A stretch of 18,036 nucleotides of DNA from Gemmatimonadota bacterium (GTDB lineage Bacteria > Gemmatimonadota > Gemmatimonadetes > Palauibacterales > Palauibacteraceae). The stretch's first letter is position 1. Every line of letters begins with the position of its first letter. This document shows positions 1 to 12,000 of the stretch, one piece after another. The stretch spans positions 1 through 18,036 of the forward strand of contig JBDHAC010000069.1 in assembly GCA_039588275.1 (NCBI GenBank), written 5' to 3'. Made by a program: the position numbers.

Positions 1-3000
1 GGAGGGGTGAAGAGATCCCGCGCCGCACCGCCGACTGCACGCAACTGTTCCGCGTAGCGACGGCAATGCTCGCAGCGAAACAGATGCAACCGAACCAGCG
101 CCCGGTGCCGCCAGGTCGCCGTGACCAGCTCGTCGCTCGCAATCGCTTTCGTAACCTGCCTGCACGTGAGCATCGGACGCTTCTACCCCCTGGTCCCTGA
201 GCGGATCGACTGGTTGACCGGTGAATCGATCAGTTCTTCAGCGGATCGATCCCCTTCCCCTCGAGGCATTCCCGCAGGCGGTTTCGAATTCGATACAGGA
301 TCACACCCAGGTTGGTGACGGTTACCCCCAGAATCTTACGGATCTCTTCCGTCGAGAGGCCCTCGACCTCGCGAAGTACGAACGCCATTCTCTGCTGAGT
401 TGGAGCGGCGTCGAGGCACTCCGAGATGGCGCCTCCGATTTCCTGGTCTTCGAAGTCGGCGTCCGCCGGCCGGGGCGGCCGGGCCCAGCCTCCGGCATGA
501 TCGAAGCGCGCCTCGAACACCTGGTCGATGTCATCCAGCTTTCGATCCCGATCCCGCGCCCGACGTTTCTCCGCGATCTTCTTGTATAGAATCCCGAACA
601 GCCACGTCCGCACGTGAGATCTACCCTCGAAGCGGGGAGCATTCTCGATGAAGGTCGTGAACGTCGCCTGTGTCACGTCCTCGGCCTGCTCTGGCGTCAG
701 ACCGGCGCCACGGGCGGCCCGCAGCACCTGGCCGAGGTACCTGCTCACGACGGCCCGAAGCGCGACAGGGTCACCGGCGCGAATCCTTTCCGGGTGCATG
801 GCATCGTCGTGACTCGGAGGAGTGGAGTCGTCGATCGAAGGTGCGGCGGACATGTCGGCCGTCAGGCCGGACTCGAGAGCGCGTCCCATGCTCACATAAG
901 GGCAGGCATCGGGTTCGGGTTCCCGCCTGCGATTCTCACCGCGTCACCAGGGCCGGAGCTCCCGGGCAGCCTGCGCTCATCACGCTGTTGTAAGAATCCA
1001 CGCTCGAGTCGCACTTACTTCGATGATGGCCGAGCGGAATCGCTTTCCGTCTCGGCCGCCTGACGAAGAAGCGAACAAGAAACAAGACGGATATAAGGAG
1101 TCTCGAAATGGATGCGACACACTCGAAGCGCCAGAATCATAGCAGACCACTAGCTGCATCTCGCTGGGTTCGGACCGCACTGGCGGTCGCCGTTTCCGCG
1201 TTCGGGATCGGTCTGACGACGGGGACGCTTTCCGCTGATGTCATCACTCCGATCGCTCAGTCAGGGGCAGCCGTGCCGATAGGGGCGGCCACGGGGAGCT
1301 CCGCTGACGACAACCTCCTCGAGGCCGCACGGGCAGAAGGAGGACTCTCTGCGTTCCTGGCGCTCGTCGATGCCGCCGAGCTGGGCAGGCTGTTGGAGAG
1401 CGACGGCCCCCTGACGGTCTTCGCTCCGCACAACGCGGCGTTCGCCACGGATCGGCTGTTGGGCAGACAGGACAGGGAAGATGTCCGCCGGCTCGTTCTT
1501 CGGCACGTGGTCCGCGGCAAGTACAACCTCGGTGACCTGGCCGAACGGGATCACGTGAACTCGATCGCCGAGGACCGGTCATTCACCGCACTCTCCGTCG
1601 AGCGCGTTGGGGAGCGGATCGTGATCGGAGGAGAGGCCTGGATCGTGGGTGAGAGCATCGAGACCCGAAACGGCGTCATTCACGTGATCAGCCGCGTACT
1701 GAGCTGATTTCAACGACGGGGTGAGCGGGTCTCCTCACCTGGTTACGGACTGACGCGGGGCGGGCCCGAACGGGTCCGCCCCGCGTCACATCGGGGAACC
1801 GAGAGGTCCGAACCGCGGTTACACCTGCTGTGGTCCCGGTATGGGGCCGCACGGATCCGATCTCTCGCGGAGGGGCGGCGCTGTATCCAACGCGGTGCCT
1901 TCCTGGTGGCAGGATGACGGAGATGACACACCGTGGGCCGGCCCCTCCGCGATTTCTTCGAGATCTTGCCCCTCGCTCCGACCCCGACGCGTACCCGGTT
2001 CTCATGGCCGTGAGCCGGGGACTCCCGTACGTTGGGCGGCAGGCGCTGTTCGGTCTGAGCGACGCGAGCGGCGCGGCACCACAGCTCGTGGAGGGGGGAC
2101 CGTGAGCGAAAAGAGCTGCGACACGTGCGAGTACTGGCAGGATCTGGAGGACCAACCGGCGGGCGAGTGCAGGAGGTACGCCCCGCACGCCAAGAGAAGC
2201 ATGGACGCCCAGCGGGCCGTGGCGGCATGGCCGATCACGCACCCGCACGACTGGTGTGGCGAGTTCAGCCGCAAACAGGAGCGCGTCGCGACCCCGGCCG
2301 ATTAGAGAATCAAAGCCTCGTAGCTCCGGCGACGGACGCCCAACCCGGAGGGCGCTGAGGACGCCGAGGCGGCTTCCCTGCACCAACTCACATCACGAGG
2401 TCCGCGTCAGGCGAGCGCTGCGACCCATCGTAGGGCCAATTCGTCCCATGCCGCGGATACGGTCGCTTCGACTCTCCTGGCGCACCCAGCGATAACGCAC
2501 TCACACATAACAGCTTACAGTACGTCACGCCCTATCCCGGGACAAACGCGCCCCACGGGCGCACTTCATGCCGACCACGCCACCAGATCGCCGTTGGGAT
2601 CCATCACCAAGCAGACCAGGAGACCCCCCGATGCGCGAGGAGGTGAAAGACCTGTGGCCCGAGCTGGAGTGGATCGGTAACGAGGAGTTACGCGAGTCGA
2701 CTCTAATGGCGTGGATGCGGGCCTTCGAGCACAGCCCGCTCACTCCTGCCGACCTCCAGAAGATCCCCTTCACTCTCTTGATCCCCAACTGCCCCGCGAC
2801 GTTCATGGAGCACAAGCGCTGCGTGGTCCACATCGCGCGGCGGTCGGCCGAAGCGATGCAGGAGTTCCTGGGTGGGCTTCTGACGATCGACATGGATGTG
2901 GTGATCGCAGGCGCGATCCTGGCCGATGTGGGCAAGCTGCTCGAGTACGAGATGGTCGGTAGCCGACTGGTGCAGAGCGACCGGGGGAAGGCGCTCCGAC

Positions 3001-9000: not shown

Positions 9001-12000
9001 GCCTTCGAGGCGGCTCAGGCGGAGGGCCTCGGTGTGGTCAGCCTCGGGTCCAAGATGATCGATCCACCAGTCGTCGAGCAGGCGCTCCGGGTCGTGGAGC
9101 GCGCGCGGGCGGCCGGGCTCGTACCGGGCGGGGATTCTGAGGCCCCGCCGACCGACGAACGCGCGGAGGACGCCGGATTATGAGCAAGTACGGCGATCTC
9201 GTGACCAACGCGGTCGGCCGGCCGGCACCGGTCGAGGTGAACGACCTCCCCCAAACGCCCTTCCAGGGAGTGGGCGCCTACCCACCGGACGGAGTGAAGG
9301 CCGCCCCGCCGGTCCGAAGCTGCAGGGACTTTCCGACCGATGGCGACAAGCGTGTCGAGAGCCTGGCGGAAGCCTTCGAGCGTTGTGGGCTCAGCGACGG
9401 GATGGTGATCTCCACGCACCACCACCTGCGGAACGGGGACTACGTGGCGCTGCTCGCATTGAGGGCGGCGGCGAAGGTGGGCGTCGAGGATCTCATGTGG
9501 TTCCCGAGCGCCTCCTTCCCCTGTCACGAGCCCGTGATCGAGCTCATGGAGCGGGGGGTCGTGCACCACATCGAAGGAAGCATGAACGGTCCGTTGGGCG
9601 ACTACTGCTCTCACGGCCACATGCGTGGCATGGGGGTGTTGCGATCGCATGGCGGTCGCTGGCAAGCGATCCAGGACGGCGAGGTCCACATCGACATCGC
9701 CGTGATCGCCGCTCCGACCGCGGACCCGTTCGGGAACGCTGACGGCTCACATGGCCCGTCGGCTTGCGGCTCGCTGGGGTTCGCGCTCGCCGACTCCATG
9801 TACGCCGATCATGTGATCGTCGTGACGGACAACCTCGTCCCGTTCCCTTGCATCCCGTGGCAGATCCACGGCAACCACGTCGACCACGTGGTCGAGGTTG
9901 ATTCCATCGGTGATCCGTCCCTGATCGTGTCGGGCACGACGCAGATCACGCGAAGCCCCGAGCGCCAGATGATCGCCCGCAACGTCGCGACCCTGCTCCG
10001 GGATGCCGGGATCATGCGCGACGGGTTCTCGTTTCAGGCCGGGGCAGGGGGCATCGCGCTCGCGTTCGTCGGCTACCTGGCCGACATGATGCGCGACGCG
10101 GGCGTGACCGCCTCGTTCGTGCGCGGCGGCTCGACGCGGTATCTGGTGGAGCTCCTGGAGGAGGGGCTGACCGGCTACATTCTGGATGGCCAGACGTTCG
10201 ACCTGGATGGCGTCCGGTCGATCGCCGAGAACCCGCGGCACGTCGCCACCTCGCCTTTCACGTCGTACAACTTCCACGGGAAGGGCAACTTCGCCTCGAT
10301 GGTCGATGCAGTGGTGCTCGGAGCCACCGAGGTCGACGTGAACTTCAACGGAAACGTGGTCACCCACTCCGACGGCCGGCTGCTGCATGGGATCGGCGGG
10401 TGGCAGAACTGCCTGTTCTCCGGGTGCACCGTCCTCGCCGTCCCCTCGTTCCGCGACCGGATTCCGGTGATCGTCGACGAGGTGACCACGATCACCGGTC
10501 CCGGTGAGCTAATCGACGTGGTAGCCACCGAGCGCGGCATCGCGATCAACCCCCGCCGTCAGGACTTGAGGGATGCCCTCCAGGGCTCGGACCTGCCGAT
10601 CCGACCGATCGAGGAGATTCGGGACGAAGTGGAGCGCATCTGCGGCGGGAAGCCCGCCAAACCCCGCCTCACCGACGAGCCCGTCGCCGCCATCAAATGG
10701 GTCGACGGGACGGTCATCGACACCGTGTTCAGGGTGGGGGATTGAGGCTTCTCGCCTCAGGCGGTGTGTAGGACCTCCAGCACGCGCGAGCTTCGTGCCG
10801 CCCCGGGCGCTCTCCCGGGTTCAGGGTGGGTCTGGCGGACCAGACGCCGACGGCCGCAGTTCAGGGCCGCCCGGGATCACGGAATTCGCGCCGGCGGGAC
10901 GATTGATCCGGCGGGTCAACGAGTTGCTCTTGTTGTTGGCCGCGTCCCAGATAGTCACCGTCTCGTCTACCCAAGTGGTCCCGGCAAAGAGGATGCAAAC
11001 ATTCGTAGCCGTGATCGTGCCGGAGAAACCGTCCCCGGTGAACTGGTAGTTCAGGCCGCCGGCCGTTCCCGAGGTTCCGTCGCTGAAGGCGTACTTCACC
11101 TCGATCGTGGTCCCGCTAGGAGTGACATCTCCATCCGGGTCGCTGTAGTCCCATTCGAACTCGAAGTGACTGCCGGGCGGGCTCTGATGGCCACAGAACT
11201 GGGCCGCGTTCAGTTGGATTAGCTTCGTCTGGAAGTTCGAGATGGTCGGCGCGACGGAACCTGGGCAGTCGACGTCGAAGGTGGTCTGCGCGGTTTGACC
11301 GGAGATGACGGTGACGTTGCGCGGGTTGGTTCCGTTGATGACGGAGCAGTTGGACGCGAGTCCCGTGAGCTGGACGGAGTGGCTGCCCGGCGTGAGCTGT
11401 GTGAACGTGACGGTTGCGTTGTTGCCGATCGACTGGCTCAGGCTGCCGTCGACGGTGACGGTGTACCCGTCGGGATCGGGGTTCGAACCGGTCGTGCTCG
11501 TGCTCACCTGAAGATCACCAGGGGGCGTCTGGCAATTGACGTCGAAGGTGGTCTGCACGGTTTGACCGGAGATGACTGTGACGTTGCGCGGGTTGGATCC
11601 GTTGACGACGGTGCAGGTAGCCGCGATCCCCGTGAGCTGGACGGAGTGGCTGCCCGGCGTGAGCTGTGTGAAAGTGACGGTTGCGTTGTTGCCGATAGAC
11701 TGGCTCAGGCTGCCGTCGACGGTGACGGTGTACCCGTCGGGATCGCCGTTCGCCGGGGTGGTAATCGTGGTCACCTGGAGGTCGCCAGGGGTGGTTGGGC
11801 AGTCGACGTCGAAGGTGGTCTGCGCGGCCTGACCGGCTGTGACGGTGACGTCCCGCGGGTTGGAGCCGTTGATGACGCGGCAGTTGGACGCGAGCCCCGA
11901 GAGCCGAACGGTGTGGGTGCCCTCGGACAGCCCCGTGAAGGTGACCGTGGCGTTGTTGCCGATCGACTGGCTCTGGCTGCCGTCGACCCTGACGGTGTAG

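Follow-up and report, generated by a model that had tools for sequence, protein, structure and literature searches.

A six-gene operon with a CitD-CitE fusion and a Lys4-type homoaconitase may process homo-series tricarboxylates in Gemmatimonadota

The window, which is the whole stretch of 18,036 nt of Gemmatimonadota DNA that was analyzed, carries a run of six ORFs on the + strand. The first ORF (2631..3164) encodes an HD-fold protein of 177 aa with a weak HDIG match, and its ATG at 2631 is preceded by a GGAGA site. It is followed by an MmgE/PrpD-family enzyme of 458 aa (3223..4599; PF03972/PF19305), a Lys4-type single-chain homoaconitase of 666 aa (4612..6612; TIGR00139), and an isocitrate/isopropylmalate-family dehydrogenase of 394 aa (6690..7874), which matched Iso_dh and stayed below every specific cut-off. 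The fifth gene (7888..9183) encodes a protein of 431 aa with ACP and CitE matches, in which a CitD-like ACP (about residues 20-105) is fused to a CitE-like lyase, and the sixth (9180..10745) encodes a CitF-like CoA/ACP transferase of 521 aa (PF04223; TIGR01584). The genes are separated by 58, 12, 77, and 13 nt, and the last two overlap by 4 nt. Homologues of the alpha, beta, and gamma subunits of citrate lyase are thus all present, and the ACP, lyase, and transferase matched their E. coli homologues at 34-39%. Scans for Rfam families, promoters, and terminators gave no match.

The same six-gene order was found in 61 of 62 GTDB loci of at least 15 kb, and a second scan recovered all six genes in 103 of 106 loci of at least 19 kb, with duplicates between the two scans left in these counts. 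A scan with the query P0256 returned zero loci. Among the genomes of relatives, 23 of 41 contained the full CitD-CitE, and the operon is common to many soil and sediment bacteria of the Acidobacteriota, Gemmatimonadota, Eisenbacteria, and Bacteroidota. The survey's finding of a six-gene operon was therefore confirmed, but its description of the order as invariant was too strong, since the genes follow the order DH-HD-Lys4-PrpD-DE-F (DH, dehydrogenase) in locus L453 and the operon is split and partly replaced in Bacteroidota. The lyase was kept without the dehydrogenase or the HD protein in 7 of 30 Bacteroidota genomes, while the latter two co-occurred in the same 23. Neither PrpD nor Lys4 over its cut-off was found in these 30 genomes. 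One or two other aconitase-family proteins adjoin the dehydrogenase and HD genes in five Bacteroidota stretches and in locus L269, suggesting that dedicated hydro-lyases were retained. No conserved transporter or regulator was present in the flanks of 159 loci.

The ACP was fused to CitE in 77 of 78 ACP matches, as the survey had proposed. The survey had also described the serine motif of the ACP as kept, which was refuted by the alignment. The codons of Arg33-Ser34-Asp35 lie at 7984..7992 (+ strand), and the serine is one column off, so that Arg33 occupies the column of MdcC Ser25 and of CitD Ser14, the serine to which the phosphoribosyl-dephospho-CoA group is attached. MdcC is described in a part of PMC5534430 as the bridging subunit with Ser25 as its attachment site. 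The attachment-serine column was Arg in 78 of 79 ACP rows and Arg or Lys in 134 of 150 distant representatives; among the latter, S-x-D was seen in four, all of them among the weakest matches, and the serine after the Arg varied to Gly, Ala, or Thr in four. An ungapped check of the register gave a score of 96, compared to -89 when shifted by one. Moreover, the loop of the ACP is three residues longer than in E. coli-type CitD.

The absence of citC and citG reported by the survey was borne out: CitC was over its cut-off in none of 39 carrier genomes, and CitG was found in one of them, at an unrelated locus (these genomes are incomplete). E. coli CitX, CitG, and CitC used as queries also gave no match in the genome studied or in the loci. 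The missing CitC, CitG, and CitX would be explained by an ACP that has no attachment serine and needs no activation. We consider it very likely that the ACP is unmodified and that the lyase uses free CoA. The ACP would then act as a scaffold without a prosthetic group, in which the invariant Arg may bind a phosphate of CoA.

In the CitE domain, the Arg, Glu, and Asp that are catalytic in the family are retained. Gly342 (8911..8913, + strand) stands where malyl-CoA lyases have the pocket Trp and E. coli CitE has Ser, and this Gly was found in 80 of 80 Bacteroidota loci. In this family, a Pro/Trp pair contacts the pyruvate methyl group, as stated in a section of PMC3832036. A small residue alone is no proof of a larger substrate, however, as Ala fills this position in 3qll, a CitE-family enzyme of Y. 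pestis. The domain also has the Glu of E. coli CitE, where propionyl-accepting lyases keep Ala. The CitF-like protein scored 485.5 against TIGR01584 (cut-off 501.45) and matches E. coli CitF at 39%.

The Lys4-type protein passed the homoaconitase model TIGR00139 with 718.6 bits (cut-off 529.9), and its three conserved cluster cysteines align with those of the solved HacA. By its sequence, it is a candidate hydratase interconverting cis-homoaconitate and homoisocitrate. The PrpD-like protein belongs to the wider MmgE/PrpD family and passed neither of the PrpD equivalog models (87.9 against a cut-off of 575, and 65.1 against 458); its nearest solved relatives were IDS epimerase and the IRG1 of B. 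subtilis. We propose it as a candidate dehydratase between homocitrate and cis-homoaconitate. According to an excerpt of PMC3556520, the fungal Lys4-type homoaconitases catalyze only the homoaconitate-homoisocitrate step and require a second enzyme, and PrpD is the second enzyme of the methylcitrate cycle. The dehydrogenase passed none of the homoisocitrate dehydrogenase (HICDH) models used, which are archaeal (AksF2, the best NCBIfam match, 263 against 540; AksF, 254 against 500; a third, 139 against 680), and its best solved structural match was an isocitrate dehydrogenase (IDH). Its loop reads Ser96-Pro-Ile-Val99, a motif found in 142 of 143 sequences, and Ile98 occupies the position of Asn115 of E. 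coli IDH. This specificity loop may resemble that of fungal Lys12, and we propose the protein as a putative homoisocitrate dehydrogenase. Taken together, the Lys4-type aconitase over its cut-off, the dehydrogenase loop without the IDH Asn, and the Gly in the CitE pocket point to seven-carbon compounds, and the substrates are likely tricarboxylates of the homo series.

The HD fold suggested by the survey was supported by a predicted helical model (pLDDT 80.8) and by structure-match lists filled with HD proteins, the closest being the HD domain of YhaM (Z 12.3, rmsd 3.8, 154 residues aligned). In the Atlas clusters to which the protein belongs, 32-53% of the members carry PF01966. The His-Asp pair of the metal site is absent, with Ala98-Asp99 in the protein of this operon, Ala-Asp in 137 of 139 HD proteins, and Ile-Asp in the other two, while His61, His124, His148, His165, His166, and Asp168 are invariant. 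In its distribution, the HD protein follows the dehydrogenase and not the lyase. This pattern, together with an ACP that has no attachment site, disfavored a role in place of CitG or CitX. A speculative role would be that of an accessory hydrolase serving the dehydrogenase and hydratase steps, which might for example open homo(iso)citrate lactones.

The distribution of lysine 6-aminotransferase (LAT) was compared with that of the operon in the 41 relatives. Of the 23 carriers, 22 had LAT at E<=1e-90 (20 of them over the cut-off), as did one of 18 non-carriers, G034, which has an operon-type PrpD at 76%. Within the family of the studied genome, the counts were 10 of 10 carriers and none of 15 non-carriers. 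With correction for the tree, there were four independent pairs on supported branches, and the sign test was not significant (p 0.125-0.25). The association breaks down in Terriglobia and Bacteroidota: four of five Acidobacteriota carriers and all 30 Bacteroidota genomes gave no LAT match, and G043, G046, G082, and G086 yielded no close ALDH7 orthologue. In the studied genome, LAT and piperideine-6-carboxylate dehydrogenase both pass their cut-offs and are encoded outside the operon.

HglS was found in none of the 41 relatives. HglS-like genes were present in 15 of 23 Bacteroidota carrying the dehydrogenase and HD protein, and a mutual exclusion of the operon and HglS was not seen in that phylum. 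SucA, a possible rival sink for 2-oxoadipate, was matched in four of five carriers. The studied genome also has a glutaryl-CoA-dehydrogenase-like gene. Citrate synthase, AcnA, and NADP-IDH are encoded elsewhere in it as part of a separate full TCA set, and the idea that the operon stands in for citrate synthase was rejected, as that enzyme was present in 56 of 57 genomes. LysW-type lysine synthesis was rejected likewise, because LysX was over its cut-off in none of 39 carriers (one of 57 genomes overall, a non-carrier). The thioester-reductase domain was over its cut-off in none of five carriers, and ArgB and ArgC were not found in the studied genome. Lysine synthesis in carriers through the DAP route was not upheld: LysA was over its cut-off in 39 of 57 genomes, but DapB was found in one of five carriers and one of five non-carriers, and asd, lysC, and dapD were undetected in the studied genome. 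A homocitrate-synthase-like gene may not be wholly lacking in this genome, since one DRE-TIM synthase, scoring below all cut-offs, is present.

In the pathway we propose, LAT and piperideine-6-carboxylate dehydrogenase would convert lysine to 2-aminoadipate, from which 2-oxoadipate would be formed. The dehydrogenase would then add CO2 to 2-oxoadipate by reductive carboxylation, giving homoisocitrate, which the Lys4-type enzyme would dehydrate to cis-homoaconitate. Hydration by the PrpD-like enzyme would yield homocitrate, probably the (S) isomer, onto which CitF would transfer free CoA from acetyl-CoA or succinyl-CoA, and CitE would cleave the homocitryl-CoA into 2-oxoglutarate and acetyl-CoA. 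The survey's route from 2-oxoadipate through homoisocitrate and homocitrate to 2-oxoglutarate and an acetyl unit remained the best reading, supported by the pocket residues, the co-occurrence with LAT, and the separate TCA set; its substrate, direction, and stereoisomer are what we infer. The catabolic direction is probable in the lineage studied, although reductive carboxylation is uphill unless CO2 and NAD(P)H are high. The (S) isomer, which would be the mirror image of the homocitrate in lysine synthesis and nitrogenase, is somewhat favored. That the operon both processes seven-carbon "homo" tricarboxylates and completes lysine breakdown in this Gemmatimonadota lineage is slightly favored on balance. 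The broader proposal of a widespread, O2-independent route of lysine degradation that incorporates one CO2, runs via (S)-homocitrate, and ends in a citrate-lyase-like complex in which free CoA, held by the Arg at the former attachment site, has taken the place of the covalent CoA arm, is possible but doubtful.

The same substrates could be processed forward, with CitE and CitF condensing acetyl-CoA and 2-oxoglutarate, the thioester energy being kept, to lead to 2-oxoadipate. This would be oxidized by SucA and glutaryl-CoA dehydrogenase or by HglS, or aminated to 2-aminoadipate and possibly carried on to lysine through a reversed LAT. Oxidative decarboxylation is indeed the favored direction of isocitrate/isopropylmalate-family dehydrogenases, and the frequent lack of DapB in carriers, the undetected asd, lysC, and dapD, and the Bacteroidales that have HglS-like genes yet no LAT or ALDH7 orthologue fit this direction as well. 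However, DapB was equally rare in non-carriers, the searches for LysX, the thioester-reductase domain, and ArgB/ArgC found no aminoadipate-activating system, and LAT is paired here with piperideine-6-carboxylate dehydrogenase, a catabolic enzyme. We regard the forward direction as unlikely.

A citrate route is quite improbable. In this reading, a citrate lyase that works without ATP would be accompanied by an aconitase and an isocitrate dehydrogenase of its own and would serve either citrate fermentation or a reductive branch of the TCA cycle, in agreement with the best NCBIfam names (CitE and CitF), the solved IDH match, the seven lyase-only Bacteroidota genomes, and the interpretation of an Ignavibacterium album CitE::CitD fusion in an excerpt of PMC3362086. 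But the aconitase is of the Lys4 type and not the TCA type, the PrpD-like step would duplicate AcnA, the IDH Asn is missing, the flanks hold no conserved transporter, and the LAT link would be left unexplained. Very improbable, finally, is another tricarboxylate, such as 2-methylcitrate or a longer homologue, or a repair of wrong-handed homocitrate from side reactions of citrate synthase. PrpD family membership speaks for the former, the lyase-only genomes are compatible with repair, and the PrpD-like protein, which among solved structures lies nearest to an epimerase and IRG1-like proteins rather than PrpD, also fits these readings. Against another tricarboxylate, 2-methylisocitrate is a tertiary alcohol that this dehydrogenase family does not oxidize, and CitE has Glu in place of the Ala of propionyl-accepting lyases.

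If the homo-series pathway is true, it would fill a gap in the catabolism of 2-oxoadipate in groups that abound in soil and sediment (Acidobacteriota, Gemmatimonadota, Eisenbacteria, and Bacteroidota), assign substrates to four orphan enzyme groups, and caution against scoring such CitE/CitF genes as citrate fermentation or the reverse TCA cycle. The ACP without its serine illustrates a change of mechanism by which three activation enzymes can be shed from a carrier-dependent lyase, and the operon points to a prokaryotic home of the fungal-type homoaconitase. No published description of the operon was found in the open-access literature.

Among known systems, citrate lyase CitDEF with CitC, CitG, and CitX (EC 4.1.3.6; E. 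coli, Klebsiella) shares the homologous ACP, lyase, and transferase and the catalytic Arg, Glu, and Asp columns. The operon differs in the Arg at the attachment-serine column, the longer ACP loop, the ACP-CitE fusion, the pocket Gly, the linkage to a homoaconitase and a dehydrogenase, and the lack of CitC and near lack of CitG (1/39). CitF and a CitE::CitD fusion are also described in Ignavibacterium album (IALB_1146/1147), a possible member of this family, in PMC3362086, which interprets them as citrate lyase and does not mention homoaconitase. The upper alpha-aminoadipate pathway of fungi and Thermus (homocitrate synthase, aconitase with Lys4, and Lys12) has a Lys4-type hydratase, a two-enzyme isomerization, and an HICDH-like dehydrogenase. 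In contrast, the operon has a lyase and CoA-transferase in place of the synthase and a PrpD-like enzyme in place of the aconitase, LysX/LysW and aminoadipate reductase were not found, and it probably runs in reverse with the opposite homocitrate isomer. The 2-methylcitrate cycle (PrpC, PrpD, AcnB, and PrpB) likewise pairs a PrpD-family step with an aconitase-family step, but here the PrpD-like score is 88 against 575, a dehydrogenase replaces PrpB, and the operon has no PrpC. The known bacterial sinks for 2-oxoadipate, namely HglS (0/41 relatives) and the 2-oxoacid dehydrogenase leading to glutaryl-CoA, start from the same proposed input, whereas the proposed route would run without O2 and consume CO2.

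The six open reading frames of the survey's finding were borne out at 2631-10745 on the plus strand, with close spacing. Pfam and NCBIfam matches identified an HD protein (weak HDIG match), a PrpD-like protein of the MmgE/PrpD family, a fusion of acyl carrier protein (ACP, CitD) and CitE, and CitF, while the genes between PrpD and the fusion encode a homoaconitase (TIGR00139, 718.6 against a cut-off of 529.9) and an Iso_dh dehydrogenase under every specific cut-off. All six genes had this order in 61 of the 62 GTDB loci of at least 15 kb (identity mostly 60-80%). The order had been called invariant but is not universal, since locus L453 has dehydrogenase, HD, homoaconitase, PrpD, ACP-CitE, CitF. 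Among 106 longer loci the set was complete in 103, and loci with the operon span Gemmatimonadota, Acidobacteriota, and Eisenbacteria, as assigned from record titles. No account of the operon was found in the open-access literature. These results indicated that the six-gene module is real, widespread, and undescribed.

In the rearranged L453 (4585-13336), a 137-aa ORF separates CitE from CitF, and its CitE keeps a Lys ahead of the pocket Gly. Acidobacteriota operons carry additional internal ORFs of 155 aa (37 loci, e.g., L160:9502-9969) and 163 aa (16 loci, e.g., L028:1360-1851), which had no NCBIfam match. The window operon lies downstream of an ECF-type sigma factor (230-895, minus strand) and a fasciclin-domain protein (1108-1707, plus strand). 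It is followed by two proteins that are rich in repeats, probably secreted, and alike in their C-terminal domains (10821-13025 and 16062-18014, both minus strand), an FHA and lytic transglycosylase protein (13399-14973, plus strand), and a small class-3 lipase-like protein (15152-15775, minus strand). Since the flanks of 159 loci shared no common transporter or regulator, the substrate of the operon is suggested to be internal.

The ACP serine motif had been described as kept, which the alignments contradicted. Residues 14-16 of E. coli CitD are Ser-Gly-Asp, with Ser14 as the prosthetic-group attachment site, and the corresponding stretch of the window ACP is Arg33-Ser34-Asp35. The downstream fold fixed the register, with an ungapped score of 96 compared to -89 when shifted by one, and a profile alignment concurred (probability 99.7, with a loop three residues longer). 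Arg filled the attachment column in 78 of 79 rows, the sole exception being a frameshifted row, and Arg or Lys filled it in 80 of 80 Bacteroidota loci and 134 of 150 distant representatives. The remaining 16 were four ordinary S-x-D ACPs, six gapped sequences, and six misaligned or different ones. A shifted attachment at the neighbouring Ser was ruled out, since that residue is replaced by Gly, Ala, or Thr in four representatives. The reported absence of citC and citG stood for CitC (0 of 39 carriers) and for CitG in all but one of the 39, which matches an ACP that has lost its attachment site. MdcC has Ser-Gly-Asp starting at Ser25, which is its attachment site, and MdcC acts as a bridge within its own complex (PMC5534430). 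The operon complex most likely works with free CoA, and its ACP would have a bridging role like that of MdcC.

The same lyase occurred in 80 Bacteroidota loci, and the dehydrogenase and HD genes adjoined it in only 2 of 36 long loci. Among 30 Bacteroidota genomes searched, HD and dehydrogenase were found in an identical set of 23, seven had the lyase with neither, and no genome had PrpD or Lys4-type homoaconitase. The HD protein is therefore part of the dehydrogenase module. Its fold is that of the HD family (closest YhaM, Z 12.3, rmsd 3.8, 154 aligned), the His of its HD pair is missing, and Foldseek returned nothing at E<=0.001. In five Bacteroidota stretches and in locus L269, dehydrogenase-HD precedes one or two fused proteins that resemble HacA. 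One of the two Bacteroidales HacA-like proteins (L269:14593-16407) has Ala-Arg-Asp at an active-site motif versus Thr-His-Asp in the other, and may functionally replace the PrpD-like enzyme. Some Bacteroidales also have a tandem CitF duplication (L223:11193-14540, L256:2607-6047).

The proposed route would lead from 2-oxoadipate and CO2 through homoisocitrate, homoaconitate, and (S)-homocitrate to 2-oxoglutarate and an acetyl unit. The own genome encodes citrate synthases, AcnA, and NADP-IDH outside the operon. Dehydrogenase Ile98 aligns with IDH Asn115, and its Ser-Pro-Ile-Val loop, conserved in 142 of 143 sequences, may also occur in fungal Lys12. Fungal homoaconitases are limited to the interconversion of homoaconitate and homoisocitrate and require a second enzyme, and PrpD performs a syn elimination that is impossible for aconitases (PMC3556520). 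In CitE-family lyases, the side group on the 2-oxo acid is contacted by a Pro and a Trp (PMC3832036). At the Trp column, located via the 26-residue Pro/Trp spacing, malyl-CoA lyases have Trp, CLYBL has Gln, E. coli CitE has Ser, and the window CitE has Gly342; such a pocket would fit the bulkier 2-oxoglutarate, a point weakened by Ala at the same column in 3qll. CitE-family enzymes act on CoA esters of (S) configuration, and the PrpD substrate (2S,3S)-methylcitrate corresponds in its spatial arrangement to (S)-homocitrate. From known stereochemistry, the PrpD-like and CitE pair would therefore fit the (S) isomer.

The direction of the route was weighed first among 41 relatives. Of the 23 carriers, 22 had a match to lysine 6-aminotransferase (LAT), which exceeded the cut-off in 20, versus 1 of 18 non-carriers, with two genomes having weak CitE-only matches (G018, G022) scored as non-carriers; the single LAT-positive non-carrier possesses the operon's PrpD. 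The own LAT and piperideine-6-carboxylate dehydrogenase exceeded their respective cut-offs. An rpoB tree covered 26 of these relatives (of the 41, 11 unsearched, including the own genome, and four with no match were left out, as was a divergent second G012 copy). On it the operon state changed at least five times, and the sign test on the four supported independent pairs gave p 0.125-0.25. The two G012 rpoB copies (contigs C72 and C50) may reflect contamination of that assembly. LAT was also found in both Eisenbacteria and both additional Gemmatimonadota; among the five Acidobacteriota carriers one had it, and among the 30 Bacteroidota genomes none did. HglS, a known bacterial 2-oxoadipate sink, was found in 0 of the 41 relatives and in 15 Bacteroidota carriers; in G082, an HglS-like gene (L303:2464-3315) lies about 5 kb from the dehydrogenase-HD-hydratase cluster. 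SucA matched in 4 of 5 carriers. A search for an aminoadipate-reducing system found none, and DapB was equally scarce in carriers and non-carriers. Catabolism is the better reading, limited to the lineage of the window.

With regard to lysine synthesis, the own genome (86% complete) contains LysA, DapF-like, and DapA-like genes and a DAP-type MurE motif; asd, lysC, dapB, and dapD were searched there and not found. Within family f1, RimK/LysX-like matches under the cut-off occurred in 10 of 15 non-carriers versus 1 of 10 carriers. On contig C7 of the own genome (L096:3559-8350, minus strand), a DRE-TIM synthase that reaches none of the LeuA or homocitrate-synthase cut-offs is located upstream of NAD-IDH-like and glutaryl-CoA-dehydrogenase-like genes; among 80 related loci, these were near in 53 and 48, respectively. 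The unit may encode a Re-citrate synthase or a homocitrate synthase. On contig C6 of the own genome, a second LeuC-like aconitase-family gene adjoins a DASS-type transporter (L094:4200-8293).

Taken together, we hold with moderate confidence that the operon encodes a free-CoA homocitrate lyase pathway completing lysine breakdown. The closest published case is the Ignavibacterium album fusion, interpreted there as citrate lyase (PMC3362086). On the two features tested, the operon lyase differs from the canonical citrate lyase and is not an enzyme of that kind.
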